A stretch of DNA of 64,000 nucleotides from Bacteroidales bacterium (GCA_045639025.1 JAZUCH010000005.1:2806-66805); one strand, 5' to 3'; positions 9,405-31,800 are shown, counted from the stretch's first letter. A program made the numbers and translations. The notes: generated by a model not told the origin, from the sequence alone.

Positions 9405-12400
9405 TTACATAACTATCAATTTTGCTGTCAATACTCTTCCGGTACCTGTCACGACTCGTATCGTGTATGAACCCGAAGTATCAATTTCAGGCAATTCTAT
9501 AGGGAATCTACGTGGAACTATAGAGTGAATCTTCAATCCGACTGCATTAAAGACTTCAACCACCATTCCTGCTTTATCTTCTTCAGTGAAGTTAGACAAT
9601 ACCATGACTCTTTCTGTCTGTCTTGCCGGGTTCGGTGTCAACATAAGTTCCATTGTTTCATACATAAAGCTGCATACCATAATACTATCGCAACCATGTA
9701 CAGAAGTGTAGTTAAATGTATGTACGCCAGGTTCTTCAATCCAATTACCGTCATATTCGTATGGGAATTGTTTTACCAAAACATTTTCTTCTATGCGATA
9801 AACTGGATTGATATTAAGTTTGAGTTTAACAATACTATCGTTGCCATTGTTATCTTTCAACTTATTGAAATATGAACCTTCAGCACTGACATTAAATCCA
9901 TTTTCTTCATAAGTGTTACCGAAACAGATAGCATCTTCTATCAAAGTATTATATAAAGTATTGAACTCAAATGAATATGGGTTCAAGAGAGAACCGAATG
10001 TCTCATTGACCTTAAATTCAACTCTTTGATTTGATACCTGAGCTACAACATCCTGGCTTTCGTGATTGTACAGCATGAAGTAAATCTCATCGCCATTATT
10101 ACCGTATGTTGTCAAGAACACACGATAAGCGCCTATTTCTTTAATATAGATTGCGCGAGCATTACCGCGTTTCTCACCATTACAGAACGCTCCTACTTCT
10201 AAAGTATCAGAGTTGCATACCCAATCATCGACAACAATATCAGCGATGAATGTCATGTTATCAGGATAGTTATAGCTTGGAGACCAATTGAGTTCTGCCT
10301 TAGCGATTTCCCTAGTTCTATTTTGTGTCATTTGTGGATATGTAAGAGTGATATCATCATCATTATTTGACATATACTGATATCCCATACCTGGTTGTAA
10401 TGTAGTAAGATCACCGAACCACATGTCGAACGCATCAAAATAAACAGAGAAACCATCGCGGTATGACTTGATGATATCGCCGTCTTGAGGTGCCACGTCT
10501 AAACCTTCGAGAGCCTCGTTGACATCACTAGAATATTGAGAGATATATCCAATATGATTCCATCCTTTCTTGATGTTAATAGGATGTTCTTCAGGAGCTG
10601 CCAAACAACCATTGATAAGTGTATTCTGCAATTCCTTAGTCTTAATCATATACATCTGCTCATTCTCAATTTCATTGAGAGAACCCAGCCAACCGCCACT
10701 TGGTGAATATGTTATGAACTCAGTGCTTGACTTAATCATTTCAGCATATTGACCTAATCCAGTCTTGAGTTCTTCCATAACATCAGTACCTTCGTCATCA
10801 ATATATGTAGAGAACCAATCCCAGGAAGCTGAGAAGTTGTTATATTGATCTCCATTTTGGCGTACTGTAAGGTCTAAAGCGACGATACTGTCACATCCGT
10901 TTTCTGTAGGGAACACAACATCATAAGTTCCAGACACTGTTGATTCATCAAATATATACTCACCGAATGGGTAAGGCAATTCAGAAGCACAGATACTTAA
11001 TTTATCAACGCCATATTTTGTTGGAAGCACCTCGAGAGTCAGAACGACGCTACTGTCGCAATGATGTGACGACTCTCCCATCTTGTAATATGTTCCAGCC
11101 TCTCTGATTGTATCTCCGAACAACATATAATATTCGTTAGAACAGATTGTAGCGTAAACAGGAACGTCATAGTAAGATGGCGCTACTTCAAGGTTGACTG
11201 TGACGATGCTATCGCAGCCAGTGAGTTTAGAAGTAAAGTATACGTCCTTAGTTCCTGACTTGATAAATACACTATCGCCATAGATATATGGCATATCATT
11301 AGCACAAACCATAATATCGTGTACTATCCTTGAAGCAGGACGTATTGTTAGATTTACCTGAATCTCATCATAACATCCGTAGGCATTAACAGTATCTCTC
11401 TTGAATACCAGCGTAGTTTCATCAAGCTGATCCCATCCTACAAGATGTTCTTGAATACTATCCCAAGTTATGTTCATGCCATAGTTATCATAATCTTCAT
11501 ACATACAAATATCTTCATCAAAGACGTAAACAACTGGATCTGGACGATGCTTTACTATATGTTTCACTATACTGTCGCATCCATAAGGTGTAGGTATTGT
11601 ATCATAATAATAACCGTCTTCTGTGATGATATTACCTGCTATTTCTATATAGTCATCTTTACAGAGATAATGGTCGACCAATGTTGTTGGCGGTGTCATT
11701 GTCTGTTCTGCGAATAATATGAACGCCTTGTCGAAACAGTCTCCGCTAACGTCTGTCGTTTTGACCAATATTGTATACATATATCGACCAAAACAACGCA
11801 AGTCCTTATTCAATTTAAGTTTTTTACCATCTATCAAGAAGAAATCATTGTCATATCCATCTTCATCTACTAAAGAATAAGTAAAGGCATCAGATGACTG
11901 GTCGTCAAGGGTTGTGAATTCTCCGATGACAGTTCCAATCTCATCATCTTCATAGAAATATCTGTTAGATAATAATATGTCAATAGGTGGATTATTGTTA
12001 ATATATGTAATCTGAGGTTTATCAGGGAATGGTTCCTTATTACCGACATTATCTATTGCCTGGAACATAAACTGATACAAAGAACCTTCACCCAGTCTAT
12101 ATTGGAACAACATAGTGTCAGCAGGATTAAGAGAATCAGGATATACGGTTCCAACAAATACATATTGTGTTTTATCCACATTTGCATATAAATCCACCTG
12201 TCTTACACCAGAACCGTTTTCATCGTCAGCAGCAACTGATTTAAAGATGAGGTTATAATCTAAAAGTACACCAGACGAGTCGCATACTGTTGTTGAAGTT
12301 GGAGTTACCGCATCGAACATATTGGTATAAGTATTTGTCAAAATGTTTTCATTCTCGTCAAAAATGATATTCGCCTGTTCTGAAATAGTATCACCAGTTT

Positions 12401-15400
12401 TCATATCATCTATGCTCATCACTGAGAATGTCACGAAACCTTCTCCGCTACCAGTAAGAGTGTCATTGACAGGCAAGAAACCAATAGCATCTATAGGAGC
12501 GATACCTGTTTCTGGGTCTATAGATTGGAATATCCAATACATTTCGTTGTTTTCCACATCAATACCAGCTGTCACATCAAGCCACACACCCAGAGAGTCT
12601 GCGAGATCATGACGTTTGCTGTAATATGTTGACATAGGAGGCACTTCAAAGATATAGTCTCCGAAACCATACTGACCGAGATTTATTGTTGTAGGGTTAG
12701 CATGAGGATGCAACGGACAAGTGATCTTCACACGAGCAGCAGATGCAGTAGCGAAGTTAGGGTCATTTTCGAACATGATCTTATAGTCAATTCTGTCGGT
12801 TGCAGCAATCATCTTATCTTCACCATAACCTACAGGTCCGAAAATCTCATTAGGGTCATTAGAAAAACAAAGATCTTTCCAATAAATAGATTTTGAATCT
12901 GACATCGTTCTATCCGTTACCACTTTATGAGTAATAGGATCCAATGTTCTATGATGTGCAGTGAATGTAATTTTTTTCGCATTAAGTGTCAAGGCAATTG
13001 TTTCCCTAGGCTTAAAATATTGTGAATTGTTTTCATAGTTCATTTGGATTGGAGGAATATAAGTGAATGTTTCATCATTATTATTATCCAACACATTATC
13101 AATAAATTTTCCTTCATCTATACTCATTGTATACCACCAATCTGTAGCATTATCATTCTGAATATAAGTGAATATCTCACCACCTGCATCTAAATCAAAT
13201 TTACCTGTTTCATAATAATGATATCCTAATGTTTCCACATAACAATTTCCCCAGCCAACCGAGAGCAATGCCATATAAGGCATAGCAAGTATATGCATTT
13301 GCTTCTCTGAAATTTTAGCTATAAAACTATACAAAGGTGATTTTGGATTAAAATTCTTAGGATAAACATCAATATAATAAACACCTACACCAAGATATTT
13401 CTTCACAAGAGTATTTTCCTCGCCAGGACTAAAATTATAATTAGTACCGTTTTCATCTTTCAATGTTATATCATATGCATCGTAAACAGTCTGACCTTCC
13501 TCAAGCTGATCATTTTGTGGAATTCTTAGCACAATACTACCATCATTGCTTCCACTAAATGACAGATCATTTACTTCTATGACTTCAAAAGCAGAACTTT
13601 TTGGAGAAATCTTCACGAGATAATGAGAGATGGTATCGGCAACTTTATTACATGACGATGCTGATATATAATATTGTCTCATAGTTCTATTTGGAATAAG
13701 CTCCATTTCAAAATCCTTACTACTTATTGTGAGGTTGCTATACTCTCCACTGTAATCTAACTTAAGACCTTCATCAATCAAGGCATCTATATCAGTCTCA
13801 GCTTCGGGCAATTCATCTTCGTAATATACTGTTGGAAGATAGCCATAGACGTCAAGTTTTGCATACAGTATAAATGAATGAGTAATTTCAGCGAAAAGTG
13901 CATCAGTACATTTACTATATACCGCGTAATATCTATCATATTTAACCTCACAACCATCATCATAATCTATAGTTTCTTCTAACTTAACATCTATATTATA
14001 ATCCAATCCACAACTTTGAGGGATTGTCACGCCCACTTTTGCGAAGTCTTCGATTGTTGACAGCGGTTCAGGGAGACAGCTTGAATCAGTACATCCATAT
14101 ATAGTATCATTAGGAATTTTTTTCTCTATAGTAACAATATCTTCTTCATCGGAGTCGTAAGTACGTATTTCATAATTTTCAGTAAGAATATTCTTATATA
14201 CAAATCCGTAATATTGAAGCATAATAGTATAATTTCTAAAATAATCTTTAGAACATGGATTCTCTTCTTTACGATAAGTTTTGTAATGTATAGTTAATGT
14301 ACCTGATCCATCAAAAGGTTCTGTTCTTAATAACAGTTCATCCAAGCTGACGGGCAACTCTATTGTTTTTAAATATTCTATAATAGCATCTGTGTTATTT
14401 TCAGGTGGCAATGAAGATAAATCGTCGCCACAACCAAACCATACTGATTTATCTGGTACTTCTGCAGAATTCACCACATTAGGTTCATACCTCTGTCGAA
14501 CCTTAACACCTTCAGATTCAGCACCACATTCAACGTTACGGATAGTGAATTCTCTTTCAAATATATATGGGAGTTTTTCATCCTCAAAATCTTCATATTC
14601 TATAGTAAGTTTTGCTTCCAAGGAAAGATACGCTTCCCAATTATGGGAAGCATTACTTTTCGAAAAACCATTTATTGTAAGGCCTGACTGAAGCAAATGG
14701 TCAAGATTAATATCCACATCGTATGGCACATTTTTAATGTCATAATATACACGTGTTTGCATTTCTCCTTCAATCTTAAGACCGCTATTGATCTCAATAA
14801 CTTGAACCAATTCTGCTTCAACATTATTACTTTCATTAGCATCTTCAAAAGAACATTTATCCTTTATTTTATAATACCTATGATAAATCTCTTCACAATC
14901 TACAGACGACACGTTTTCATCTTTCACAAATTCCACTGACAATTTATCGTTATACATCGCTGATATCTGAATTTCCTTATTCGCGTCTGTCAGTTCTTCG
15001 ACTGTTGTATATTTAGGAAGTTCATCCAGGTTGTCCAATGCAGTATCTCTAATTGTATCCATCACACCTGTCACTTCAAACAAATCGTCATCATTAAAAT
15101 GAAGAATCTCTACTACAAGCTTTGCTTCATATACATAAGCAATCTTTTTGCCATCTTCATTGGTAGAAATTCTTTTTATTTTATGTTCTCTCATTAAGGT
15201 GGTGTAACAACGTTCTTCAATAGGTGTACTATTATCAGGATAAAATTCCTCCCATTCTATTGTCTGTTCAGCATAAGGATCATCACAATATTGATCCAAC
15301 AATGTTACATGTTCAGGGAATATATCAAGCAAATACTCTGCTATCGTTTCTTCATTATACATAATACCATCCATATAGTCTCTTATATCATCATCAGGAT

Positions 15401-17018
15401 GGTATAATGACGAGGGCTCCCAAGGAGAAGAACCCACAAGAATATATTCAATCTGATAAATAATCTGCTCCAGATGAGTTTTCACGGATTCATCACATTC
15501 ATCTGTTATATAATAATTTCTAGTGATTTTCTTTGTGCCTTCAGCAACCTCAACAGGGTCATCATCAAAGTTTGTAATTACAACATTATCAAGATTCTGG
15601 CATTCAAATGTGAAACCAGGATTGTCTTCCAACAATTCTTCTATTGATGAATAAGGTGAAGGGATACTCTCTTCATCAGATATAGTAAGTTCTCCCAATA
15701 ATCCAATAACATTGAATTTTTCATTGTAATGCTTCAAATTGAATTCAAGTACGCCGATATATCTATAAACAACGCCATCATTCTCTCTGTCGAGGAAAAA
15801 AGTCCTTTCTAATAAAGTGTTACAAAAATTCTCAGGGTCACCGCCGTATGTAATTTCCTCATACATTTTTCCAGTTTGGGGAGAATCCGGACATTTATCT
15901 GCCAACATCATTATACCAACATAAAAATATGTATTGACCTGTTCTAAAAGGACATTGTCGAGATAATAATATCCATCATTATATGTGCGCAAATCTGCGT
16001 TTTGATGATATAATTCCAGCTGAGCAAATTCTTCTCCTATTATTATAGTGGCATTGACATATATTGTTTGTACGATAGTGGCTGATACAGAACTATTACA
16101 TTTATCTCTCAGCACATATGTCCTTCTGTATTCTTTTTTGCCTTCCTTAACCTGTGCTACAAATTCATCGTGTGATGACACTTCTATCTTATCTAACGAC
16201 GTGGCTTGAACACTTATCGGATTTGCTGCCATAAGTTCAACTACAGAAGTAGCAGGTGTCGGGAAACTCTCCTCTTCTTTGATATTTATGGTCTGCATCG
16301 AACCGCTGACGGTTATTGACTGATTAGCATGATATACAATAATGTCAACTATTGCTGTATATCGGTATATCGTTCCACAATTTGCGTCGACGCTATGCGT
16401 TCTTCGTATTACCGTTTGACAATCATTCGATGATATTGTCGCATCACTATAATTTGAAATAACAACATTATTTATACAATAATTGGCCAATATACCATTT
16501 ATTTGAGGGAAATAAGTATTTATGTACGCGCTAATAGTACTTGGGTTGTACAAGCTTCCTCCGCTATAACTAGCGAGATTGGCATCAGGATGGTATATTT
16601 CCATGTTTGCCGAGCCTGTTCCTACATTAATTATTGCTGAACTTAATCTCTTGTTGATGATCTGTATGAGTTCATACTCCATATTGGAATCATCTTCCAG
16701 AATATAATATCTCTTGTATTTCCAATATTCATCATCGTTTTCATAGTATTCATCGCGATCATGAGACAATGTTATATTGTTCATATTTCCGCTACTTGTT
16801 GTAATCTCTATATCAGGATTATCATCCAGCAGTTCCTGTAAGTTGTCATAAGGTTCAGGGAGAGTTTCAGAGGCTTCTACCGTCAATGTTTTCATCTCAC
16901 CTTCAATGGACAATATCTTTGACGCATCTATGCCGATGCCGGAAGACGCTTTGAGCAAGAGACTTCCCAACATCATTATCGTCAATAGAATAAATTTTAT
17001 AGAAGTATATCTTTTCAT
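9405..17018 (-). CDS. 2537-aa modular cell-surface protein with a T9SS type-A C-terminal sorting domain (putative adhesin)
   Basis: Signal peptide MKRYTSIKFILLTIMMLGSLLLKASS. N-terminal modules alternate and end in R.YY(I/V).D.C....Q.I. A cadherin-like segment reads NNPPIDILLSNRYFYEDDEIGTVIGEFTTLDDQSSDAFTYSLVD. Six GCDS(I/S)(V/M) modules are present. The C-terminus ...EVFNAVGLKIHSIV....GSYTIRVVTGTGRVLTAKLIVM is typical of Por/T9SS CTDs. Confidence 0.85.
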   Translation of the reverse strand: MKRYTSIKFILLTIMMLGSLLLKASSGIGIDASKILSIEGEMKTLTVEASETLPEPYDNLQELLDDNPDIEITTSSGNMNNITLSHDRDEYYENDDEYWKYKRYYILEDDSNMEYELIQIINKRLSSAIINVGTGSANMEIYHPDANLASYSGGSLYNPSTISAYINTYFPQINGILANYCINNVVISNYSDATISSNDCQTVIRRTHSVDANCGTIYRYTAIVDIIVYHANQSITVSGSMQTINIKEEESFPTPATSVVELMAANPISVQATSLDKIEVSSHDEFVAQVKEGKKEYRRTYVLRDKCNSSVSATIVQTIYVNATIIIGEEFAQLELYHQNADLRTYNDGYYYLDNVLLEQVNTYFYVGIMMLADKCPDSPQTGKMYEEITYGGDPENFCNTLLERTFFLDRENDGVVYRYIGVLEFNLKHYNEKFNVIGLLGELTISDEESIPSPYSSIEELLEDNPGFTFECQNLDNVVITNFDDDPVEVAEGTKKITRNYYITDECDESVKTHLEQIIYQIEYILVGSSPWEPSSLYHPDDDIRDYMDGIMYNEETIAEYLLDIFPEHVTLLDQYCDDPYAEQTIEWEEFYPDNSTPIEERCYTTLMREHKIKRISTNEDGKKIAYVYEAKLVVEILHFNDDDLFEVTGVMDTIRDTALDNLDELPKYTTVEELTDANKEIQISAMYNDKLSVEFVKDENVSSVDCEEIYHRYYKIKDKCSFEDANESNNVEAELVQVIEINSGLKIEGEMQTRVYYDIKNVPYDVDINLDHLLQSGLTINGFSKSNASHNWEAYLSLEAKLTIEYEDFEDEKLPYIFEREFTIRNVECGAESEGVKVRQRYEPNVVNSAEVPDKSVWFGCGDDLSSLPPENNTDAIIEYLKTIELPVSLDELLLRTEPFDGSGTLTIHYKTYRKEENPCSKDYFRNYTIMLQYYGFVYKNILTENYEIRTYDSDEEDIVTIEKKIPNDTIYGCTDSSCLPEPLSTIEDFAKVGVTIPQSCGLDYNIDVKLEETIDYDDGCEVKYDRYYAVYSKCTDALFAEITHSFILYAKLDVYGYLPTVYYEDELPEAETDIDALIDEGLKLDYSGEYSNLTISSKDFEMELIPNRTMRQYYISASSCNKVADTISHYLVKISPKSSAFEVIEVNDLSFSGSNDGSIVLRIPQNDQLEEGQTVYDAYDITLKDENGTNYNFSPGEENTLVKKYLGVGVYYIDVYPKNFNPKSPLYSFIAKISEKQMHILAMPYMALLSVGWGNCYVETLGYHYYETGKFDLDAGGEIFTYIQNDNATDWWYTMSIDEGKFIDNVLDNNNDETFTYIPPIQMNYENNSQYFKPRETIALTLNAKKITFTAHHRTLDPITHKVVTDRTMSDSKSIYWKDLCFSNDPNEIFGPVGYGEDKMIAATDRIDYKIMFENDPNFATASAARVKITCPLHPHANPTTINLGQYGFGDYIFEVPPMSTYYSKRHDLADSLGVWLDVTAGIDVENNEMYWIFQSIDPETGIAPIDAIGFLPVNDTLTGSGEGFVTFSVMSIDDMKTGDTISEQANIIFDENENILTNTYTNMFDAVTPTSTTVCDSSGVLLDYNLIFKSVAADDENGSGVRQVDLYANVDKTQYVFVGTVYPDSLNPADTMLFQYRLGEGSLYQFMFQAIDNVGNKEPFPDKPQITYINNNPPIDILLSNRYFYEDDEIGTVIGEFTTLDDQSSDAFTYSLVDEDGYDNDFFLIDGKKLKLNKDLRCFGRYMYTILVKTTDVSGDCFDKAFILFAEQTMTPPTTLVDHYLCKDDYIEIAGNIITEDGYYYDTIPTPYGCDSIVKHIVKHRPDPVVYVFDEDICMYEDYDNYGMNITWDSIQEHLVGWDQLDETTLVFKRDTVNAYGCYDEIQVNLTIRPASRIVHDIMVCANDMPYIYGDSVFIKSGTKDVYFTSKLTGCDSIVTVNLEVAPSYYDVPVYATICSNEYYMLFGDTIREAGTYYKMGESSHHCDSSVVLTLEVLPTKYGVDKLSICASELPYPFGEYIFDESTVSGTYDVVFPTENGCDSIVALDLTVRQNGDQYNNFSASWDWFSTYIDDEGTDVMEELKTGLGQYAEMIKSSTEFITYSPSGGWLGSLNEIENEQMYMIKTKELQNTLINGCLAAPEEHPINIKKGWNHIGYISQYSSDVNEALEGLDVAPQDGDIIKSYRDGFSVYFDAFDMWFGDLTTLQPGMGYQYMSNNDDDITLTYPQMTQNRTREIAKAELNWSPSYNYPDNMTFIADIVVDDWVCNSDTLEVGAFCNGEKRGNARAIYIKEIGAYRVFLTTYGNNGDEIYFMLYNHESQDVVAQVSNQRVEFKVNETFGSLLNPYSFEFNTLYNTLIEDAICFGNTYEENGFNVSAEGSYFNKLKDNNGNDSIVKLKLNINPVYRIEENVLVKQFPYEYDGNWIEEPGVHTFNYTSVHGCDSIMVCSFMYETMELMLTPNPARQTERVMVLSNFTEEDKAGMVVEVFNAVGLKIHSIVPRRFPIELPEIDTSGSYTIRVVTGTGRVLTAKLIVM

Positions 17019-17037: not shown

Positions 17038-18330
17038 TTAGAAATCTTGACAAGCGTCGCCTATGCCATTACAATCTTCGTCTTCTTGTTCAGGGTTGTA
17101 ATGTTTAGGGCAGTTATCATATTTATCTGGTATGCCGTCGCCGTCGGTATCGTCGTCACAGGCGTCACCATCGCCATCGAAGTCCATATCTTCCTGTCCT
17201 GGATTATAGTGCAAAGGACAGCAGTCGCATTTATCACCCACTCCATCGCCGTCACTATCGATTTGGTTAGCGTTATATAGTCGAGGGCAGTTGTCTTTAT
17301 CATTAGGCCATCCGTCGCCATCCATGTCATCATCCACTTCATTAAGTATTCCGTCGCCGTCAATGTCGGGGTTACATGCAACACCTCTAACATTACCATC
17401 TTTGTCGAGAGCAACCTCTTGATAAGGGTCGAAGTCATCAGGGCAAACGTCGCAGACATCACCTACTCCATCATGGTCGCGGTCATCCTGTTCTGGGTTA
17501 TAATCATTACAGTTGTCGCAATCATCGCCCACTCCATCGCCATCGCTATCTCTCTGGTCAGGATTTGGTGTGTTAAGGCAGTTGTCACAAGCGTCACCTG
17601 CGCCATCAGCGTCGCTGTCTCTCTGGTCGTTATTCACAGTACAAGGACAGTTATCCAAGAGATTATTCAATCCATCGCCATCGATATCTGCGGATGACAA
17701 AATTGTTGTAGGACTATAATACTGAAGATATACAACGAGGTTTGCCGACAAGGAAGTGCTGTCGGTCATAGTAGCAAGTTTCCACTCTCCATCATCGATG
17801 ATACAAGCGAAAGTACCTTGTGATATAAGTTCATCATTATTATACATCTCAACGAACAGCTGAGTATATTCATTAACTTTATAGCTGAGCAGGAGGTTGA
17901 ACTTATTTACCATTGAAACAGCCTGCATATATCTCTCGCTAATAGAATCAATCGACAACAACTGGTTAATTGCAGCGGCATCTGAAGCTCTGTATAATTG
18001 TTTTATTTGGCTGATTTCACCTGAAGCGTAAGCCTTGAGTGTTCTGCAGAGAAGTGCCGGCGGAGTATTGGTATCGCCAGCATTTTGGTTTCCGCCGCTA
18101 GTCTTTATCCATCTGTTTCCAACAATAGGTTTCAGACCATATACATTATAATACATATAAGAATTACAGATGTTGTTTGGAGCATGGACGTTAAACATCT
18201 TGATTTCGTCAGCTTTATAATCCAAGGCAATGTCATAACTTTCAGGAGTGTAATCAGGGAACATATCAGTCTGGGCTTTAAGTCCCAATGACACTGCAAC
18301 TAATAATAACAATAAAAATTTATTTCTCAT
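17038..18330 (-). CDS. Exported thrombospondin type-3 repeat (calcium-binding) protein without an OmpA-like anchor domain
   Basis: Signal peptide MRNKFLLLLLVAVSLGLKAQ, then a ~210-aa unknown N-terminal domain. After that come about ten D.D.DG..D..D.C repeats (DIDGDGLNNLLDNCP, DSDADGAGDACDNC, DSDGDGVGDDCDNC ...) running to the stop codon. Confidence 0.8.
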   Translation of the reverse strand: MRNKFLLLLLVAVSLGLKAQTDMFPDYTPESYDIALDYKADEIKMFNVHAPNNICNSYMYYNVYGLKPIVGNRWIKTSGGNQNAGDTNTPPALLCRTLKAYASGEISQIKQLYRASDAAAINQLLSIDSISERYMQAVSMVNKFNLLLSYKVNEYTQLFVEMYNNDELISQGTFACIIDDGEWKLATMTDSTSLSANLVVYLQYYSPTTILSSADIDGDGLNNLLDNCPCTVNNDQRDSDADGAGDACDNCLNTPNPDQRDSDGDGVGDDCDNCNDYNPEQDDRDHDGVGDVCDVCPDDFDPYQEVALDKDGNVRGVACNPDIDGDGILNEVDDDMDGDGWPNDKDNCPRLYNANQIDSDGDGVGDKCDCCPLHYNPGQEDMDFDGDGDACDDDTDGDGIPDKYDNCPKHYNPEQEDEDCNGIGDACQDF

Positions 18331-18374: not shown

Positions 18375-19820
18375 TCAAAATAATAAATATGTATATTCTG
18401 AAGTCTGAAGAGACATCACCGTTGTTGCAACTCTAAAATACAGGTGATTCTCAACGCCATCGGTTTCCAATCCAGTTTCCAATATATTTACACAATCTGG
18501 GCATAAAGATGTATCCGACTTCATCAATTTATTCACATTGATATAGCTATTTCCTTGTGTTTCTAATTTAAAACCTGCTGTAGCTGATATAATAGAAGGA
18601 TTTAATACCGATACTGTAAGACCTAAATAAAGGTAAGGATCTTGTTTTGCCGGTATCTTTAGTGATGAAGATCTTGTATCCAGAATATGCTCTTCGCCAT
18701 CTCCTACAATAAATTTTTGTCCATAAGTACCTGATGCATCTAGTCTAACTCCATATATATTTGCTATAGGAGCATCCATACTTACAGAAAGTTCAGCCTC
18801 AAGCTTTCCTTTATAATATATTTCTGGATATATCTTACCATTATCACATAAGAAATTGAATCCTACTCCCTCAAATTTGGAATTATATTTAAAACCTATT
18901 GAAGCAGGAAGAATACCTGTTACATCAACAAAAGTCTTGACAAAGGTAAAAGTGTTAACCGTTGAGTTTCCGCCATCAGAAACATCATATACCAACATAT
19001 AAAGCGGAGAAGGCAATATTGTGGCTGGATCCGACAGACAATGCAATCTATTTACACATCCTATAGTATTTGCTACATTATCAACATGTTCCTCTACCTC
19101 TGCTGGTATTTCACTCGCCAATGACAAATCACTACGTTCAATACTCTTCTGTTCGTTGATTACTGGTATATTGCATGTCATCTTGCTTTCATAATACTCG
19201 CCATCTTCATCTATCGCCATAAACTTGACAACGTGCATATATAACGGCCATAACTTATTCATACTGCCGTTAAGGACATCTGTTCCTTCCTTTATCTCCA
19301 CATATTCTTCAAGCCCAGGTGGCTGTGTGACAATGTTAAAGTCATCTCTTGTGAGAGTTGAACCTTGAATGAAACATTTTGATGCTTTAGGTTCTATATC
19401 AAGAATATCCACTCTTGATGTAGCATTGACCACTACATATTCTTTCTTATGTCCATATTTTGATACCTGAGTACATTTAAATATATATTCACCTGGAGCA
19501 AAAATAGACACCGTTGGATTTGATATCAATTCGTTATCAATAAAACACGATCCATCTTCTGATTGCCTATATACCTCCCACCTATAATAAACATCATCGT
19601 TTGTATCTGTCTTCCCCAATTTCACATCAACACTACCTACAGTCTTATCAAAGAAAACATATCTGTCTTCTCCAGCAAATACTGGACCTGACTGTGAATA
19701 AGACTTTAATCCCATTGAAACAAACAACAGAACAAACAACATTTTTGGATGCAGAACGCAAAACGCAGAACGCAAAACTTTTCTTGATATCATTGTGTAT
19801 TTTATATTATTCTTTTCCAT
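18375..19820 (-). CDS. Exported protein of unknown function. The C-terminal half is beta-strand-like and ends in Phe, so it may be an outer membrane beta-barrel.
   Basis: Hydrophobic signal MLFVLLFVSMGLKSYSQ. The true start may be the ATG at 19793 or 19742, because upstream codons are read from a heptamer array (gcagaacgcaaaacgcagaacgcaaaac). The N-terminal Ig/PKD-like segment reads YRWEVYRQSEDGSCFIDNELISNPTVSIFAPGEYIFKCTQVS. The C-terminus is ...LYFRVATTVMSLQTSEYTYLLF. The gap to the upstream giant gene is 9 bp. Confidence 0.6.
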   Translation of the reverse strand: MEKNNIKYTMISRKVLRSAFCVLHPKMLFVLLFVSMGLKSYSQSGPVFAGEDRYVFFDKTVGSVDVKLGKTDTNDDVYYRWEVYRQSEDGSCFIDNELISNPTVSIFAPGEYIFKCTQVSKYGHKKEYVVVNATSRVDILDIEPKASKCFIQGSTLTRDDFNIVTQPPGLEEYVEIKEGTDVLNGSMNKLWPLYMHVVKFMAIDEDGEYYESKMTCNIPVINEQKSIERSDLSLASEIPAEVEEHVDNVANTIGCVNRLHCLSDPATILPSPLYMLVYDVSDGGNSTVNTFTFVKTFVDVTGILPASIGFKYNSKFEGVGFNFLCDNGKIYPEIYYKGKLEAELSVSMDAPIANIYGVRLDASGTYGQKFIVGDGEEHILDTRSSSLKIPAKQDPYLYLGLTVSVLNPSIISATAGFKLETQGNSYINVNKLMKSDTSLCPDCVNILETGLETDGVENHLYFRVATTVMSLQTSEYTYLLF

Positions 19821-19829
19821 ATAGCGATA

Positions 19830-22800
19830 TTATTCCACCTCATCTTTTAATTGCTCAAACTGATATATTTCATCATTTGTATAGATAACGAATCCCAGTC
19901 CGTCATTTGTAAAACAGTAGATCGGCACAGTGTAGCGCACTCCAGGACGAAGGATGCCTTCTGGTTCTCCTTCCATTCCGATTGGAATGTCTAACTCTGT
20001 TCTGTGTACGTTTATCTCACCTCTTTCGAGACCGATCCACGCACCAGCAAGACTGCATAGTCTAATCTTAGGATTTACAATATCTGTGTTACCTATATTA
20101 CCATATTCAAGAGTCAAGATACAATATCTGTTAAGTCTCAATCCATCTGGGATGATAAGATTTGTTGAGAGGTTTTCTGGCAGACCAGGCACCACAACGA
20201 AACTATTCATCAGATATGTATATCCAGCACAATAGTTATATGCTTCTATGCTATAGACGCCCTCTTCCGCACCTGTCATATCGAAGGTGACGCATACCTC
20301 ATTGAAGTTGATGTAATAGAGTTCTTCTGCTTCGATTATGTTATACATAGTGCTATCTGCAGGATTACCCATGAAGAGTCTGACCGGCATATCGTAACGG
20401 AACTTAGAACCTATGAGTTTCACAGTGACCTTACCTGTGTTACCAGCGGTGTTAGATTCTACAGAACGTATTTCAAATGGCAAGATGTTAGCTTCTATAG
20501 TAACCATCTGCTCATCATCGAGAGGGTCGTTACCCATAACGCTGATACCGTAGTAACCAGCTCTTGTCGTTGGGATATATACTTCAGAATTGCCTTCCAT
20601 ATCGCCGTCAGTTGAGAAGTCGTAATCCATATTGCTACCAATACTGTTATGTTTTACGTAGATGTTATTCACAGCACCTATTTCAGCATCCAGTGATGAA
20701 ACATGGATACGAACCGTCTCGTTGATATTTCCGTTGATATTAAGTTTGAAGTCTTTATGTACGAGGTCTTTCAACTTGAATGTAATCGGTGTATCGAAGA
20801 AGAGTTCTGGGACCTGTACCTCGAAAGGATAAGCAGAATATCCTCTATTGTTATTTTCATCCACTTCATAGAATGAGTTACGAGCATCACCATAAATGAT
20901 GATGTAATACTCGCCTTCTGGTATACCCGAGATATCTGCAGTGAAAGTATATTCTTCGTAAGAATAGTTAGGCAATACCAAATCATGATCTATGTTTCCT
21001 AACAAGATGTCGTCTGGACTGAATGTCTGGTCTGTTGAGAGATAAATAACATCGTTACAACCCTTACCTTCCAATTTGTTTGGTCCTAAGTTCTTGAGGT
21101 GATATTTTATTTCCATATCATCACCTGAAGTAACCATGTATGGATGAGAAATAGCTTCAACAATAATATCTCCTGGAGGATTATGATCTACATTAACTGT
21201 ATGCATTCCGAGGTTGTTTTCGTAATTCACCTCAAATAACATTCTTTCTCCGTTTGAAGCATTGACATCAATATAGAGAGCAAAGTTTCCTGTATTCGGC
21301 AATGGAATTATTAATTCTATAGTATCATTATAAGACTGACCAGGATCCAAATTGAGATTGTCGTTGTAATTAATTCCTCCCAAGATTCCATTATCATAAG
21401 TATTTCTTGACCAAAAGATCTTGTCTATCCATGATGCAGCAACTTTGTCGCCAATATTTGTAACAGTATAGGCAACACGTATCGGTTGACCCGCCGCAGG
21501 ATATTCCGTTACAATATCAACATTGCTAATCTCGAGGTCTGGAACTGGGACACTATAAACATTCTCACCCATACAAGCAATATTGTTACTTGGATTGGTA
21601 TCAGGATTATTATTTCCATCATCAGCAACCATTATGATATAAACATCAGGACCTATACCATAAGGAATAGTAACATCTATTACACCTATTTGCGATTCTC
21701 CAGCTTTCAATCTGTTAGCACGAAACGTTCTGATTTTAATATCACCACCGTCCAATACATTATCCTCAGACAGATAAATAGTATTAAAATAAGATTTAAC
21801 AGTAGGCTTGGTTCCATTATTTCTAACCTCATATTCATATGAAACAACATCTCCCCAGTATATATCACCTATTAATCTAGCCAAGTATCTAACTTCCAAA
21901 TCACAATCGTATAAACCAACATCTAATAGAGGACTCTGATATATATTATTATTTTCGCCAATATGCTCATATACAACATCTTCAGCATCCACTACTATGT
22001 AAAGGTATTGTGCCGTAGTTATATCTGCAGGAAGAACAAACTCAAAGTATCCTTTACAACCATTACCATAATGACTAAAATCAATTATGTCACCATATGT
22101 CATTGAATTTGAGCATAAATATTTAGCATTATTTATATTGAATTGTGGTTCAGATGAAATATAGAGTCTATTAGTCACAATTGTTTCACGTAAATTATAA
22201 AATTCCACGCCTTGGGTTTCTCCTATAGTGTAAGGCAATACAATAGTATCCCCTGCCATCGCACTTTCAGGCATATCAACATGCAATATTTCCAGATCAG
22301 AATAAGGGCGCAACGACACTTCGAAACTCTCAGATACTATGTAATTAGTATATGTATTATCACCTTCACAAACATTTTCATCATCATTGACTGAGACATA
22401 GAGGTAATATATACCCTCAGCCGATTGTGGCATTGTAACATATTCTGTTATAGTGACAGTCTCTCCTATTGCAAGAGACATAGGTTCATACTTGCTCAAC
22501 AACTCTTCTGCTGTGATGAAGTTAAGTTCAGGAGATAGACCAAGATAATATCTGATATTGACTGTATCATTAAAATCTACATAACCTCTATTTGTGATAG
22601 TATATGTAATTTCATTTCTTGAAATGAGCACAAGTTCATCTGCGAAAAAGTCTGGGTTGAAGAGCTGCAAGTCTATAGTCTGATTATTATTTGTAAATGT
22701 TTTTTCATTGCCAACATAACGGCTTTCAACCTTGAGAGTATTATCTGTATAGAAGTTACATTCAAGATGTATAGGCAACTTCATTATCAACGAATCATTA

Positions 22801-25800
22801 GGATTAAGATTGATTGACTCTATTCTATTATTAAATATCTGTGCATTGTTATAGTTGACAGTATTAGACATTTGACCGTCGATAATCTGACCTTGACCTA
22901 TATTCTTAACAATATATCTGACAGTATCTCTGTTCTCATCAAGTGTCAAACCATATACATAGAGATCTGGCAAGACCACTCTTACAGTATCACTTATCGC
23001 ATTATTATCTTCTTTATTGTATTCGAAGATGTTATCGCCTTGGTCAGTAAGAATATGTATGTAATACAATCCATCTTCATATTCTTCTGGAATAAGCACT
23101 TCTTTTTCTACGGTATAACTATTCTTGTATAGTTCAAGTTTCTCATGACGAAGAGCCTCGCGTTTCAAGTCCTGTATTTCTTTTTCCTGCAAATACTGGT
23201 TCCACTCATCCGAATCAACAGTAATAGTGTCAGAAGGTATGATTTCAGGGAACTTACAATTTACAAACACGTCAATAGTGTCAATTATAGCTTCTAATTC
23301 ACCAAGAGTCCATAATATCTTGTTATTATTGTACGTCATCAATTCTTCCGCAGAGTTATCAAACTCTGATTCTTTAGAAATATAAATCTCATCTCTCCAT
23401 GGTTTTCCGTAAATTGGAGGCAACATTGCACAAGTATCTTCCGACCATTTTGAGTTTTCGTTAGTATTCTTGTAACCTATATTCTTGACTGTATATGAAA
23501 TCTTGAATTTCTCATTTGGTGACAAGGTATCTGATGATATTACGATATTTTCTATTGTCAAGTCAGCAGGCGGCACTAGCATAAATACTGTAGGATGTTC
23601 TGAACAGAATGATATATTATTATGCTCGAATAATGATTCATAAACTTGGTCACGTACGTCAGTCTCTACGAAGAAGTAGAATGTGTCGATATCCTTCTCA
23701 TTGGTGATGAATTTTGCTGTACGAGTAAGTGTATCGTTACGTTCAATGCTGATAGTATCACGGAAAGCACCTAACATTATCGCATCATCATCGAAAACAT
23801 CTTTTGTTGACATATAGATATTGTCAGTTACAGGAATATTTTCGAAGGCAGCGCCACCTTGGTTGATGAGTTGCCATGAGATAGTGATGCTATCACCGGC
23901 GAAATGTTCGTAAGGAACGATAACATTCGTTGCTATGAGGTCAGGGATTGGAGGGATATCTACTTCAATAGCTTTATAGAAGAAGTTATCCACGCCGTTG
24001 ATTTCCTCGAAAGAAGCATTACCGGCTTTCTTATTATAACCAGACATAAAACCGTATGGTTTTCCTTCTCCATAGAGGTTTGGAGTATATGGATTAGGGA
24101 ACACACCACCATATTGTGCAAAGTTCAGACCTAATCCAGCGTTAGGGTTCCAGTTAGACAAGACGAACAAGAACACTGCGCCATACATATCGTCAGGTAC
24201 TGTGATAGTCGCTGTATTTGTATAGCTCTCTCCTACTTGCAAAGCAGTGAGGTTTTCCACTCTGTCAATGATAAATGACTCGTATGGAACCTGTGTGAAG
24301 CTTTCTGTTGTCCAGTCGATAGGATAAGAAAGAACTATGTAATCATACCATGTCTCGCCAACAGGTGTAGGACCGTGACCGTCGTTACGTACTGTCCATT
24401 CCACTGTCATAGGCTGACCTGTCTGTGCGTAAGAGCAGTCCATCGCTGTGATATGCAAGTCAGGCAATGCTGTGTTGAAATACATAGTGTCTGTTTCTAT
24501 AGCAGCACATTCTCTGTAAGCCACCACCTTCCATGCGTAATAAGCGATATCTTCTTCTAAAGTCTGCTCTAGATATCCTGGCAGTTGTTCTTCAATAGGT
24601 ATATAAGGAAGGAGTCTAGGATATCTGCCATAACCTTGATATACTGACGCTTTAAGGTCAATAGTATGATAGTTATTGGTGATGTTGTATGCTACAGGGA
24701 AGTCTGGTTCCGCAAGTCCATGACCATCATCGACACGCCATAACCATAACTCGTATGACTCAGCACCTTCTATGTGATCCCAAGAGAACAAGACTTTGCT
24801 GTTAGCTTGAAGAGCCTGGTCATTTTCTGGCAATAAGTTGTCTGTCTCGAAATAGTTTACCCAAACTACAGAATCTGGATTACATTCTGTAGTGAAGTAA
24901 ACAGGATTAGAATAAGGGCTCATTTCAATCTCGTTGCATATAGCGCGTACCTTGACGAAATATTCAAGGTTTGGAGAGAGACTATCGATAGTGATATATG
25001 TTGTATCGACTGTCATCAATGTTGGTGAGTTCTCTCCTGCTCTATCAAAATATACTAACCATTCTGCTTCTGTTCCGTTTGAAGTCCATGTAACATCAGC
25101 TGTTGTGAATGTCAGCTTATCTTCAGGAACGCTGAGGTCAGATATCATCTTACATGAAGTAGGATTATGTTCGCAAGCGCCCATATCAATATTAGCTCCT
25201 CTGACACGTTCATTGCCATCATAGTCAAAATCAAGGTAATGTGTCAGATCCTTATTACCTTTATCGATACAGTCTGATGTTTCACTGAGGTTGTACCAAC
25301 CATCTTCCAGACGCTCAAACGAAACATAATTAAGGGCAACATTACTACCACTATTTTCTGTCTCCAATATAATATTTGTTGCAGGATCAGGCACAAACTC
25401 GTCACGTTCACAAGCTGAATACTGGAAGTCCGGACCATAATGAGAATGTCTAATGTTACTTATATAATTACCTGCTCTATTTCCCCACACTATTGAATTA
25501 TATATAGGAAATTCACCTGATGCATAAATACCACCTGCATAAGCTCCTTGAGCATCGCCATCTGCAACATTATTCACGACAGTACTATTTACAATTTTAC
25601 CGTATGTAAAGACGCCTCCACCCTCTTTTGCCGAGTTTTGAATTATCACAGAATTGTATATTTTACATTGGACACCATATATACCACCGCCTCTAATATC
25701 CGCTTTGTTCAGTCCGATATAGCAATATGAGATAGTATCATTGATACCATTCGCCACCAAAATGGCGCCACCACTTGCCGTTGTAGTGTTATCTCTAAAA

Positions 25801-28800
25801 GCACAATCATGTACAGAAACATTATTTACAATATACAGAGCTCCACCGCCATTTGTACTCAAAGGACTGGAGAGATTGGTATTATATAAAAAACCTGAAT
25901 TATATACTTCTACATTACTGAGTCGAGCTGCAGCTCCCTTATTTACAGAGCGTCCATTCATGAATCTTATACCATCTATTCTATTACGAGTGCCAGATTT
26001 ATTATCCTTAAGATCTCTGATCAAGATTTGTTGCTTATTTTGTCCGTCAAAGACTGTCTTGTTTGTATCGAAGTCACGTAATGATAGGTCGAAGTTTGCC
26101 GCTTCATTACCAACGAAACCACCATATAAGCTGACATTATCTGGCATGATGAATGCTGGATTTGATGCCACGCCATTACCTTTATAAGTACCCTTTGCAA
26201 TCCAGAACTTGATAGGTCTTTCATATTGATATATTCTATCCATAGCGAACTGCAGATATGGAGTTGCATTAGCCCATGAAGAACCATCTTTAGTACCGGC
26301 ACCTTTTTCTGTCACATAGACAATATCGTTAGCATCAGGTATAATCTCATGGTTAATTTCGAAGTTACTTTCATAAGCACCCATATCGATGGAATCGTTT
26401 ATAATACGAGGATTGCCATCAAGGTCTACGTCTGTTACAAGTGAAATTGTAGAACCACGGTTAACACAGACAGAACCATCTTGCAATCTCCAGTCGCCTG
26501 CTCCATAGTTACCTACGCCAACTGCGGTTGTAGGATTTACGAACATCGGATAGTTGATATCATCGCTGCCTGAATTAGCGGCGTTAAGAATGATGTTGCC
26601 TTTACCGACACAACCACCTTCAACAGCAGAATAATTCACTTGTGTGTTATAGTAAGAAACATCAACATCATCCAAATTCAAGTTTGATGTGATGTTACCT
26701 TCTATCTTATTTCCCCAAATAATAGAATTCTCAACAAGTTCATAATTAGAGATACCACCTACTCCATCATAAGCATAGTTATTAACAATAGTAGAATTAT
26801 AATGCTTAGTCTTTGGAGATTTTGAATCTTGAGCACTTGTACCAGCGCCAGCATACGCATCAACGCCGCCATATCTATCATCTTTTACCGCACCATTGTT
26901 ATTGATGAGACAGTTTCTAAATGTAATAGGTCCATAATAACCACCACCAATAGCATTTGTCACTTTATTGTTTCTTATTACAGAATTTATAACAGAAACT
27001 TCTTTTGTATCAGCATATATACCTGCTGCTCCGCATTGTTCACCAAGACTATTCCAGAGACCTTCGATAGCTGCACCGTTCTCTATTATTGAGTTTCTCA
27101 ATTCACCCTTACGCATCAAAACGTTACCACCATAATTACAATATACGAAACCGTTTCTTATTGTGAGACCGTCATAGATGGCATAGTGCATTGGGTCGAG
27201 AGAATATTTGAAGTGAGTGCTATGAGCCTGATGCAATGTTCTTTGGATATTCTGACCGTCGAGGATTGTTGCGTTGTTGACAAGGTCACGTTGTGTAAGG
27301 TCATAGTCGTGAGCCTCGTTACCAACGAAACCGCCATAGATGTCAATACCATTAAGACCGATGAATGCATCTACGTATGGCCAGCCGTTACCGGTGTAAG
27401 TACCTTTGGCAATCCACACTTTTGGATGATTGTCATCATCAGCTGCAAAGTTAAGAGCGAGCTGCAAGTCGTTGATAGCGTTGTCCCAAGAAGAACCTGT
27501 CATATCGCTGCCTGTATTATTTGCATTGACGTAGATGATGTTATTTCCGTCAGGATAGATACGGAAACTGTTTGTTCCATTTGTCTCGTAAGCACCTATA
27601 TCTATTCTGTCTTGTTTTACACGTTTCTCATCATCGAGGTCTTGTTCAATCATATATTCGAGGCGTTCACCCATATTGATACAGATTGAACCTTCCTTGA
27701 TTCTCCAGTCGCCGCCCCAGTAGTTGGCACCCACTTTTTCAGTAGGATTTACGAAGCGTGGTGAGAACATATCGTTGCCGTTTTCAGCAGTGAGGTTGAT
27801 AGTACCGATACCGGCAGCACCTCCTTGGATAGCGCAGTATCTCACATAGATAGGAACATTAGAAGCAGACACCGCAACCTGTTGTGTATTGAGGTCTGTC
27901 TTGTTACCCCACATTATACAATTTATGAACTCGTTGTTGCTTCCTGAGTTTGCGCTATATACACCGCCACCGAGATAATATGAGAAGTTGTTTACCATAG
28001 TACAGTTGAGCAACTGTGATGGCAATGATGAATTACCTATATACATACCTCCACCGTATGATGACTCGGTGAGCACGCTGTTGTTAGCGATGAGACAGTT
28101 GTTGATAGTTGCGTTTTCTCCGTAGATACCACCACCATGTTTTGCTGAACCGGTGAGGTTGTCGATGAGGTTGTTGTTGATTTCGCAATATGTCAAAACT
28201 GAAGATTTACAGAATGCACCGCCACCTTGTGAAAGAGCAGTATTGCCATAAATCTTACAATCAGTTATTTCGCATTTATTGTCAGCATAGATACCTGCAC
28301 CAGCACTACCTTGGTTATTCTTGATGATACAGTTTCTAACCTTAACAAAGTTCTTGACATAAATACCGCCACCTTCTTTTGTTGTATAACCTTCTTGAAT
28401 TGTGAAACCGTCAATTACCGCATTTTCATTAACATTAAAATCCTCATATGCGTTATAGTTACCCAAGACTCTCTGACTTTGTGCACCGCTGAGAATTGTC
28501 TCATTTGTCACGAGGTCTCTGTCTTCGAACTCTATTCCATTCAACTCATTACCAGCGAAACCACCATAGATTTCAACACCTGGTTTTATCTGGAACGCCT
28601 GAGCACTGGATCCGTTACCCATATAAGTACCCTTAGCGACCCATACTTGTTTCTTGGATTCTGACTGGAATGAAGATGCCTTATTGATAGCTTCTTGTAT
28701 ATCCGACATAGCGTCATTCCATGAAGAACCGTCTTTCTTACCAGCACCTGTTTCAGTGACGAACCATATCATTCTTACTTCAAGGTCTAAAGTAACGAGA

Positions 28801-31800
28801 CTATCACATGCAGATCCTTCTGGAGTCCATTGTTTGCTGTAGTGTCCCGACTCTGTCAATATATCGCCATAGAACACATATTCCTCATTTGCAATGACCT
28901 TCATGTGTCTGTAACCGATACATCCGCCTTCGTAAGCACCCATATCTACATTATCATTATAGATACGGTCTTTTCCTGCCAAGTCGAACTCTCCTACAGA
29001 ATATGCATTGTTACCTTTATCGGTGACAGCAGAATTGCTTTGAAGCTGATATGCTCTTCCTTCAGGATCGATAAAGTTGACATAGTTGACACCTTCTTCT
29101 GTTCCTGTGTTATATTTATCGAGGTTAATATTACCTGTTCCTGTGTAACCGCCATGGATACCGCAGTATTCGTATGTATTGTCATAACCCTCTATCTGGT
29201 TAGAATAGTTACGGCTAACATTATTCCACAAGATACAGTTATAATACTTGTTATTATGATTTGTAGATGACAAGGTATCGAAGGCATACATTTCAGTGTT
29301 GTTACCAACGATAGTACTATTCAGAACCTTAGTCCAGTTGATATTCAAACCAGCAAAACGATCTGACTTGTTGTTACTGATTTCACAGTTGACAATACTA
29401 TCACATTGTGTTGCAATACCATCATACTTTCTTGACATTACAATGGCACCACCTTCTGTATGAGCATAATTATCATGGAACTTGGAATATGAAATAACAA
29501 CATTCATTTTACTACTGTTATTATCAGCATATATAGCACCACCTTTAACAGCCACGTTATTATACAACTCACAATTTGTGACTGTCACATTATCTTTCAG
29601 TCTTATAGCACCACCCATATATTCATCAGGGAACGATGTTATTGATATAGGAATACGTTCAAGGTATATAGGTTCAGCATTACCATTCTTGAATGTAAAG
29701 CCATCTATGATTGATTTCTCATAATCATATGTACTTGAATAATGATCAATAGCACGATAATAATCCTTAGCATCCAAAACTGTTTTGTTTTCAAACATAT
29801 CTCTGTCGTTCTTATTGAATGTTGCTGAATTTTCATCACCTGCAAAACCGCCATAGATTTTTGTTCCAGGCACTATTGTGAACATCGCCCAACCTTCATT
29901 AGCAGACATTGTATAAACACCTTTCTTCATCCAGATTTCAGGACGTGGGTCCATTGTAGCTGCATAGTTGATAGCTGTCTGAACATCAGCAGTGGCGTTA
30001 TTCCAAGAAGAACCGTCCTTGCTGCCTTTAGCGGTCACATCTACATAAATGACATTATTTGCATCTGGAACAATGATGTCTTCTCTTGAATAATCTGATT
30101 CCTGTGCTCCAATATCAACTCTACCTTGTCTTACACGGCTCTTGCCTTTGAGGTCGTATTCTGTAAGATCATATAGTGCATCTGTACCTGCATTGATACA
30201 TACAGAGTTAGGAGTAAGAGCAGTACCGTCAAGTGACAATGTATAATCTTTATTTATGGTTATATTACCTTCTCCTGGATAACCTCCTTCAACTGCACAA
30301 TAACGTAAATTTGAAAGTCCCACCCACTCTCTGGTTATTTTCATTTCATCATCAAAGAAGTAATAATAGTTGGAAAGGTTATTTGAATTACCATTAACTT
30401 TATTACCATAAATGATAGTATTTACTATTTCGTCAAACTTACCATAGAAAGCGCCACCAGATACTTTAGCACTGTTGTTTATGACAGTACAATTATAGAG
30501 ACTAATGCTACCGCCTATCTTACGGAAAGCACCGCCATTACCGTCTTCTTCACCATCAATAGTTCTTGTAACTTTATTATTTGAGATAACAGTATTATAA
30601 TAGCGTCCGTCTCCCCATCCGCCTACAATTTTAGGGTCTTCTTGATATACAGCACCTGCATTGTTGCTGATTATGGTATTATATACATCTTGGAAACTTA
30701 CAGCAATCCTCTCGTAACCATATTCATCCTTAAACGACTCTGCAGCCCACATAATCTTAATAGCACGACGCTTATTATTGGAGATACTACATCCATCTAA
30801 CATTGTATAAGTCTGTACTTCTACACCAAGTCCATCATTGTTATCAATATTACAATTGAAGAATGATGTATTTTCTGAGTGTATTACAGGAGTACCTTGG
30901 TTATGATGGATGTTACAATTTTCAAATGTATTGATTGATTTGCGTGCATTACAGTTATCAAAATCAGCAGCATCAATCCAAATAGGTCCTGGACCGTATT
31001 CTGAATTAGTACAGTTATCCGTAATGATACAATTTCTTATATAGAAATGCTTTTTCATAAATAAAGCAGTTCCTTTTGATACACTCTGACGTGAAAAACC
31101 TTTAGTGATGGTGAAACCATCAATGATTACAGGTGTTTCTTCTGTTGCGTCTTCTTCCATGCAGATGACACGTTGTATGTAACCGCCGTCGAGAATTGTC
31201 TCGTTAGCTGTAATATCACGTTGTGTGATGTCGTAGTCGGCAAACTCAGTTCCTGTGAAACCACCATAGAGACGTACGTTTGGTTTCAAGATGAAAGCAT
31301 TGACTGATGTACCATCGCCTCTATATCTTCCCTTAGCAACCCATATTTCTGTTAAGTTACCATTATCTTTTATTGAATCGCATGCCGTCTTAAGTTCGGT
31401 ATAAGCGTTTTCCCATGAAGTACCATTATTAAGACCCTTAGCTTCTGCATTGACATAAACGATGTGTTTGAAAGTGAGATGCATAACAATGATACTATCG
31501 CAATCATGCTTTGCTTCTTTACGATGGATATATATTCCAGGTTCGGTAAGCCATTCTCCATAGAAAGGATATTCATCCATCATAGTAACGACTTTATATT
31601 CACGTTTCAAGACACAGCTGCTTTCTATAGCACCTATATCAACAGTACCGTCACCGACACGTTCTTTTCCATACGCATCAATTTCTTCTGTCACTACAGA
31701 GTTGTCACCAGCGTCAATCAAAACTGAATTTTCACCAAGTTCATAGTTGTTGCCTTCTGGTGAAATGAAATTAGGATATTCATAAGTCTGACTTGTACCG

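Follow-up and report, generated by a model that had tools for sequence, protein, structure and literature searches.

Cargo of the T9SS (type IX secretion system) is defined by a C-terminal domain (CTD) on the same polypeptide, and the locus described here raises the question of how a very large protein that has no such domain might belong to this system. We analysed a stretch of 64,000 nt from a Bacteroidales bacterium (GCA_045639025.1, JAZUCH010000005.1:2806-66805), which is as a whole called the window in the following. It contains a cassette of five genes, all on the minus strand: A, coding for a 729-aa protein, B for a giant of 6088 aa, C for a 481-aa protein, D for a protein with thrombospondin type-3 (TSP3) repeats, and E for a 2537-aa protein. 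An earlier note on this DNA had pointed out that the giant lacks a T9SS tail, and had proposed that the protein encoded next to it, C, is an outer membrane (OM) beta-barrel partner, so that both together would be a new cargo-tail/partner class comparable to SprB/SprF. The finding is best filed as a T9SS adhesin operon, i.e., a split cargo with two undescribed accessory families, C and D. Judged from the sequences, a split T9SS cargo is probable, with the giant as the half that has no CTD and with E, encoded two genes beyond C, the immediate neighbour of B, as the half that bears it. For the locus as a whole, a split-cargo cassette A-B-C-D-E with C as a non-barrel accessory protein is our best explanation, and we consider its chances to be about even.

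That the giant carries no recognisable T9SS tail is borne out by all models applied. Its C-terminus reads ...RPGVRYTVPIYCFTNDGLGFVIYTNDEIYQFEQLKDEVE (final residues ...YQFEQLKDEVE). The last 200 aa have no Pfam or NCBIfam match at E<=10; at the same threshold the last 400 aa yield none in NCBIfam and in Pfam just one, a partial match to CARDB (E 0.013). Likewise, with E<=10 as limit, neither of these two pieces is matched by the tail models of type A (PF18962/TIGR04183), type B (PF13585/TIGR04131) or type C (NF033708, ChiA-like). As controls, the same type-A models do detect the CTDs of both big flanking genes, which confirms what the earlier note had said of the operon neighbours (TIGR04183, cut-off 23: 27.9 bits for the 729-aa protein A, 24.3 bits in the last 100 aa of the 2537-aa protein E), and TIGR04131 detects the type-B tails that are encoded on other contigs of the window's genome. 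A cryptic canonical CTD in the giant was also looked for, and none was found by the hidden Markov model (HMM) searches at E<=10 or by a profile comparison, in which the terminal-domain profile of B, aligned with 20 type-A CTDs from cassette genes, reached an hhalign probability of 0.5%. Instead of a tail, the last 1500 aa of the giant form a CARDB array (Pfam CARDB in 6 stretches, E 1.6e-32), besides which Beta_helix and fn3 matches were found in the protein. The missing CTD is a family trait of the split B proteins. We propose that the giant can do without a tail of its own because it is one half of a split cargo, the tail parts of which are encoded separately as E.

The strongest link between B and E comes from loci in which both are one polypeptide. 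For comparison, 401 genomes of the order were searched with the profile of the C family and with that of the B tail, a conserved module of ~420 aa at the end of the giant. B and E are fused in five genomes, three of them from Bacteroidales (G261, G101, G288) and two from another class (G701, G737). The fused proteins start with a CARDB array and the module, followed ~400-550 aa further on by a region that is 36-42% identical to residues 1381-1663 of the window's E (E 1e-48 to 1e-63), and they end in a type-A CTD; in the linker between the B and E parts no BLAST or HMM match to C or D was found. Both G261 and G288 hold a split form in addition to the fused one. The fused polypeptides have 2270-3106 aa and are encoded at L071 2276-11596, L072 2584-10752, L073 7164-15578, L062 7485-14999 and L063 8175-14999. 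Following the Rosetta-stone argument, these fusions indicate that B is functionally linked to E, the bearer of the CTD, rather than to C. The genome of the window also has the system that such a CTD addresses, since it encodes SprA (2557 bits) and PorV (476 bits); moreover, two PorP/SprF proteins are present, as are type-B tails, all of the latter on other contigs.

The loci without a regular C point in the same direction. A C protein of ~400-480 aa follows B in 12 of the 22 B-tail loci, the window included. At three loci (G226, G117, G102) the gene after B codes for a ~945-aa protein that has no more than the first, PKD-like domain in common with C (E 1e-26 to 1e-29); then come an unknown 600-700-aa protein and finally E, and an unread locus of the same family (G331) probably has the same arrangement. 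At three others (G261, G288, G114:C62) an E-type protein of 1458-1662 aa with an M4 peptidase or SprB repeats plus DUF7619 comes directly after B. Such directly following proteins end in a type-A CTD in L067 and L068, while L069 leaves its contig before the end of the gene; for the unread loci G142, G364 and G235:C28, which belong to the same families, B followed by E is probable as well. An E-type protein is present downstream of B in every Bacteroidales locus for which the reading extends far enough to tell. The M4 peptidases of L067 2849-7591 and L069 1-4374 are thermolysin-like, are accompanied by an FTP propeptide motif and lie N-terminal to DUF7619. Of the Pfam model DUF7619 itself, only the last ~50 of 133 positions match in every E protein examined; the upstream part looks present but divergent (...DYKIMFENDP...) and is preceded by a conserved DPN(E/D)xxGPxG(Y/F)G.

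The cassette is conserved well beyond the window. Besides the window's own genome, 8 genomes of 5 Bacteroidales families contain full-length C genes, and in 11 of 11 loci read from these genomes the order is B, C, D, E. Three metagenome contigs (L001, L002, L005), the C proteins of which are only 36-37% identical to that of the window, show the same order of B tail, C, TSP3 protein and large protein, and three further, shorter metagenome contigs retain it as far as their length allows. The pairing of B and C from which the earlier note had started is therefore conserved across genomes, and its recurrence in several families of Bacteroidales goes far beyond what chance would produce. D follows C in all 11 loci and in the contigs L001, L002, L005 and L044. 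The A protein of related loci, encoded upstream of B, bears a type-A CTD. In the 11 loci, B carries a CARDB array and has roughly 860-2420 aa, C has ~400 aa, and D has ~450 aa with TSP3 repeats. Complete E proteins measure 865-984 aa and contain DUF7619 and a type-A CTD, at times also SprB repeats or a dockerin; often a sixth gene, F, comes after E and codes for a cohesin protein that likewise has a CTD. In the three genomes of the same genus that were sampled (G124, G244, G349), the searches detected no B tail and no member of the C family, so that the cassette appears to be accessory and patchily distributed. No earlier description of it was found in the literature. Between the window and L001, the identity is 72% for the B tail and 70% for D, 37% for C and 36% for the N-terminal part of E, and this rapid divergence of C and E, which is about equal in both, fits parts that may be exposed or co-adapting.

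As the giant has no known tail, its conserved terminal module could itself be the signal. The ~420-aa tail aligns along its full length among 13 tails (the window and 12 homologues) with an invariant LRPG, and in related loci it ends in ...ILRPGxxGSIxIYxxxxxGLGFTIxxPxY. Across the 401 genomes, 22 tails, among them that of the window, matched the B-tail profile over its full length; the score of the window's tail (404.9 bits) is partly a self-match, because the profile contains the window sequence. Across orders, conservation within B is highest in its last ~100 aa, which form the extreme C-terminus in every split form. These features would suit a terminal CARDB-like domain (LRPG...GLGF) that is a new class of T9SS signal, read by the translocon or by a shuttle not yet known, without participation of E or C. 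The known T9SS CTDs are small beta-sandwiches, and the rare third type (type C, ChiA, NF033708) shows that unrecognised classes can exist. Against a new signal speaks that in other lineages the module, with a matching IL(S/A)PG motif, lies inside the protein and has ~1800 further residues after it. In addition, it resembles neither the type-A CTDs in the profile comparison mentioned above nor any CTD model, and those lineages that have fused forms still end in a canonical type-A CTD. We therefore regard a tail signal of this kind as unlikely.

The protein C, for which the earlier note had assumed the role of partner, is an undescribed family. Its export is supported by the sequence, as it has a Sec-type signal peptide with the hydrophobic core MLFVLLFVSMGL and no lipobox cysteine, and its end ...YTYLLF was verified by translation. 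All close homologues have S42 and Q43, and Q43 is invariant across the broad family as well, which together with the lack of a lipobox fits cleavage by signal peptidase I directly before Gln. The full protein belongs to no Pfam or NCBIfam family at E<=0.1, and its C-terminal 241 aa have no match in either database at E<=10. A word-indexed search of 5.8 billion clusters gave 45 homologues, all of them unnamed proteins with an identity down to 36%, the named sources of which are exclusively metagenome-assembled genomes of Bacteroidales. The C profile had 212 matches among 1.8 billion representatives, of which ~107 (390-530 aa) span both halves of the protein. A subfamily sequence pattern of C retrieved no related loci in genome contigs, and the profile search of genomes was used instead. 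For the N-terminal half, PF22352 was matched with 13.6 bits, below its cut-off of 27, and the match of the family profile to the PKD domain of KIAA0319L in the PDB (E 0.0016) also stayed below the threshold. At the level of the predicted fold, a resemblance of the N-terminal domain of C to PKD/immunoglobulin (Ig) domains holds.

The predicted structure of C bears directly on the barrel. In the AlphaFold2 (AF2) model of the full protein (predicted local distance difference test, pLDDT, 72) the signal peptide is followed by two beta-sandwich domains, a helical and partly disordered linker, the region of which (229-301) is a clade-specific insertion, and a C-terminal all-beta region. With this model, Foldseek found only tandem-Ig proteins (E~1e-5), which were matched by the N-terminal half; therefore the C-terminal domain was refolded alone (residues 300-481), using an alignment of 15 sequences that spans the family. 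The resulting model of ~180 aa (pLDDT 79.3) has seven antiparallel strands of 20-27 residues each, the third of which is kinked. Conserved cysteines cluster at one pole of it, at the tips of the hairpins 1-2, 3-4 and 5-6 and at the C-terminus, and their mapping places the N and C ends at opposite poles with an odd number of strands. Neither in PDB nor in BFVD did Foldseek find anything for this domain at E<0.001, and a sequence-profile search of the PDB with the domain alone gave no match.

A dedicated OM beta-barrel carrier or anchor, which would read the novel tail of the giant as a new class similar to PorP/SprF, could draw on several of these features. C follows B immediately in 12 of 22 B loci, and 3-4 more have the longer relative that shares its first domain; the C-terminal domain is all-beta with amphipathic strands; small OM barrels are among the weak best fold matches (Legionella porin III with E 0.05, probability 0.91, TM 0.35; Thermus TtoA with TM 0.34); and the C of the window ends in Phe, as do 40 of 40 members of its own clade. 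However, outside this clade an aromatic residue (F/Y/W) is terminal in only 18 of 72 representatives, whereas in 24 of 72 the last residue is D or E. Both PorP-like carriers and PorV form FadL-type barrels of 14 strands (PMC9143113), in contrast to the seven, and thus odd, predicted strands of C with ends at opposite poles, and no OmpA-, OmpX- or OmpW-class match of weight was found in PDB and BFVD. The last 175 aa contain a median of 4 cysteines in the family and 5-10 in many relatives, and in the window's C, Lys, Glu and Asp abound on the polar face of the strands. As the earlier note had observed, PorP/SprF motifs are absent: PF11751/TIGR03519 matches neither the full protein (E<=0.1) nor the C-terminal 241 aa (E<=10), and the family profile compared with the genome's own two PorP/SprF proteins gave hhalign probabilities of 0.1-0.4%, while the same PorP_SprF model picks the true members elsewhere in the genome at 185 and 26 bits. 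In general, a bacterial OM barrel has an even strand number, both termini on one side and a beta-signal at the C-terminus with an aromatic as final residue; seven strands, opposite ends and a terminal aromatic that is not kept family-wide do not agree with this. An integral OM barrel carrier is thus not supported by the structure prediction, and on the model a carrier of the PorP/SprF type is excluded for C, although its beta domain may still be a closed roll.

The wider suggestion of the earlier note, that the tail of the giant and C form a dedicated pair of cargo tail and partner, could not be upheld either. B proteins at loci without the C family retain the same terminal motif, the module is internal elsewhere, and the fusions point to E. 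Of the conditions under which the earlier note wanted its idea dropped, two did not arise, as the pair is conserved and no cryptic canonical CTD was found, while the third counts against it, C not being predicted as an OM barrel. Taken together, a barrel that carries the giant seems quite improbable to us.

The weak fold matches of the beta domain also include pore-toxin hairpins and takeout/JHBP, which could mean that the domain inserts into membranes or binds lipids as a tether, either with hairpins of the aerolysin/leukocidin type or with a TULIP/takeout-type fold. Foldseek listed pore forms of MAC, perforin-2, gasdermin and leukocidin as well as takeout/JHBP with a probability of up to 0.75, the broad C-family profile met a natterin-like aerolysin module (E 0.052), and the strands of many relatives show hydrophobic residues in alternation with Gly, Ser or Thr. 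But all these matches are non-significant (E>=0.05, TM<=0.35), and that to natterin disappears with the profile of the C-terminal domain alone. Furthermore, the beta domain of 15 family members has no Pfam match, including aerolysin or ETX/MTX2, so that a lipid-directed tether is the least probable of the alternatives and would come as a surprise.

Returning to the split cargo, its possible working can be outlined as follows. All cassette proteins would enter the periplasm via Sec. There B would join E, and in cassettes that bear C and D these would join as well. B could then be exported or retained at the surface through the type-A CTD of E, with SprA as translocon, PorV as shuttle and subsequent surface attachment. 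C would be a secreted, non-lipidated accessory subunit, likely an adaptor or an extra fibre subunit between B and E, the beta domain of which may in many relatives be stapled by disulfides at one pole, judging from its cysteines. Both C and D can be assumed to be lineage-specific accessory subunits. Gene order, fusions, lack of a CTD, domain architecture and the presence of a T9SS are seen in the sequences themselves, while the physical contact of B and E, the export in trans and the role of C are inferred. The most specific version, in which the T9SS exports or anchors the CTD-less giant in trans, with B (and C and D) docked on E and using its CTD, and the C family acting as coupling subunit, is tentative, and we are rather doubtful about it.

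Several points weigh against the split cargo and its export in trans. To our knowledge, no use of a CTD in trans for T9SS export has been reported, and a word search of the literature for export of CTD-less proteins by the T9SS via a CTD-bearing partner returned nothing relevant. C and D also have no CTD, so that three proteins would need to be carried. The fused forms fit the profile of the B tail no further than position ~351 of 420, and hence the last ~70 residues of the split forms, including LRPG, may serve a separate function. Finally, the fold of the beta domain of C is predicted with moderate confidence (pLDDT 79), and a closed barrel is still conceivable.

The coordinates of the cassette genes and their parts are given in Table 1. 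The distance of 9 bp between giant and C, as stated in the earlier note, is correct: stop codon, 9 nt and ATG can be read from the sequence. The TAA of the giant, the spacer and the ATG of C (19821-19832) lie in a single frame, which is also the case in L001 and in L005 with its 12-nt spacer. Read-through of the in-frame TAA was considered and rejected, because a signal peptide is present on C itself and because not all spacers at other loci, which measure 9-32 nt (some 16 or 32 nt), are in frame.

Table 1. Genes of the cassette and their parts in the 64,000-nt window.
Feature	Coordinates	Strand	Description
Gene A	38169..40358	minus	729-aa protein with T9SS type-A CTD; TIGR04183 27.9 bits (cut-off 23), residues 666-723
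Gene B	19830..38096	minus	6088-aa giant: signal peptide, beta-helix modules, fn3, CARDB array, no CTD
Terminal module of B, conserved, ~420 aa	19833..21092	minus	Last CARDB + PPC-like + IPT-like + terminal CARDB-like domain with invariant LRPG; alignment of 13 tails
Spacer between B stop and C start	19821..19829	minus	9 nt; B and C share one frame
Gene C	18375..19820	minus	481-aa exported protein, new family; ATG start
C, N-terminal region with signal peptide, residues 1-42	19695..19820	minus	Gln43 invariant, likely mature start
C, tandem Ig/PKD-like beta-sandwich pair, residues 49-228	19137..19676	minus	Predicted, AF2 pLDDT 80-91; Foldseek tandem-Ig
C, linker, helical, partly disordered, residues 229-301	18918..19136	minus	Predicted, AF2; low pLDDT at 274-300
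C, C-terminal beta domain, residues 302-481	18378..18917	minus	Predicted, AF2: 7 long antiparallel strands
Gene D	17038..18330	minus	430 aa: signal peptide, ~210-aa domain without family match, thrombospondin type-3 repeats
Gene E	9405..17018	minus	2537 aa: DUF7619 (50.7 bits, residues 1515-1566) and type-A CTD (24.3 bits)
E, conserved core with DUF7619, residues 1381-1663	12030..12878	minus	36-47% identity to E proteins at other loci and to the distal portion of B+E fusions, E 1e-48 to 1e-69

Some further observations concern the neighbours of B. D matches TSP_3 in Pfam with E 2.1e-28, and its C-terminus is near-invariant in all loci (...NPDQxDxDCxGxGDxCE), without an anchoring domain, OmpA-like or otherwise. 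Related cassettes have cohesins in B and F and type-I dockerins in A and E (L032 10075-15003; L036 1-3921, 12460-15087 and 15092-16114), which hints at a cohesin-dockerin assembly in these relatives; in the window's own proteins Pfam detected neither of the two. CTD-less B-type proteins also occur in another order of the class (L057 4983-9308; L058 4653-10493; L064 4152-10010) and are followed there by proteins of 1440-1950 aa. The follower is an RHS-repeat protein (DUF6531 and RHS) in L057, and in L058 it has YD/RHS-type repeats by eye; the C-termini of the followers in L058 and L064 look like type-A CTDs by eye. Through these RHS-type neighbours the B family may be linked to polymorphic-toxin-like cargo.

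The locus stands for a widespread kind of very large surface-type protein that lacks a CTD and has close homologues fused to a canonical type-A CTD. Counts of T9SS substrates that are based on the CTD may therefore miss the largest adhesins. With C and the TSP3 protein D, two unannotated families are assigned to a defined system, and the cassette lends itself to a concrete genetic test of whether protein complexes can be moved or anchored in trans by the T9SS.

Among the known systems, type-A CTD cargo such as the gingipains and other Por_Secre_tail proteins is shuttled by PorV. The giant's neighbours A and E, like its fused homologues, are ordinary cargo of this type, in a genome that has SprA and PorV, whereas the giant, C and D have no CTD, and a use of the CTD of E would be in trans. 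In SprB/SprF and PG1035/PorP, type-B cargo has a dedicated PorP-like carrier that is encoded adjacent to it (PMC9143113, PMC12618676, PMC12635249). The locus is similar to SprB/SprF in that, within one operon of a T9SS-bearing Bacteroidota member, the gene for a very large surface protein directly precedes that for a smaller exported one, and that the pairing is conserved across genomes. However, the giant has no type-B CTD, C has no similarity to PF11751 and is dispensable in related loci, and its predicted architecture of two Ig-like domains, a helical linker and a seven-stranded beta domain differs from the 14-stranded FadL-type barrel of SprF and PorP. C also lacks a C-terminal Cys-X-Cys tail; its CPDC lies in an internal loop. 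For export bound to a partner, a conceptual precedent is known from hitchhiker co-export by the Tat system (for example PaoABC, or the small and large subunits of hydrogenases), which moves folded proteins and in which a subunit without a signal crosses the membrane bound to a signal-bearing partner (PMC4273604); this is an analogy only, with another machine, another membrane and another signal. Lastly, a survey groups DUF7619 with the intramolecular-isopeptide stalk domains (CLIPPER/DUF11, DUF7507) of fibrillar adhesins (bioRxiv 10.1101/2025.04.25.650565). In contrast to the adhesins surveyed, the DUF7619 of E matches its model only over the last ~50 positions. Similar to them, E and the fused forms carry DUF7619 and B contains CARDB domains, which are Ig-like, in a long array, and by this analogy the grouping would fit a surface fibre.

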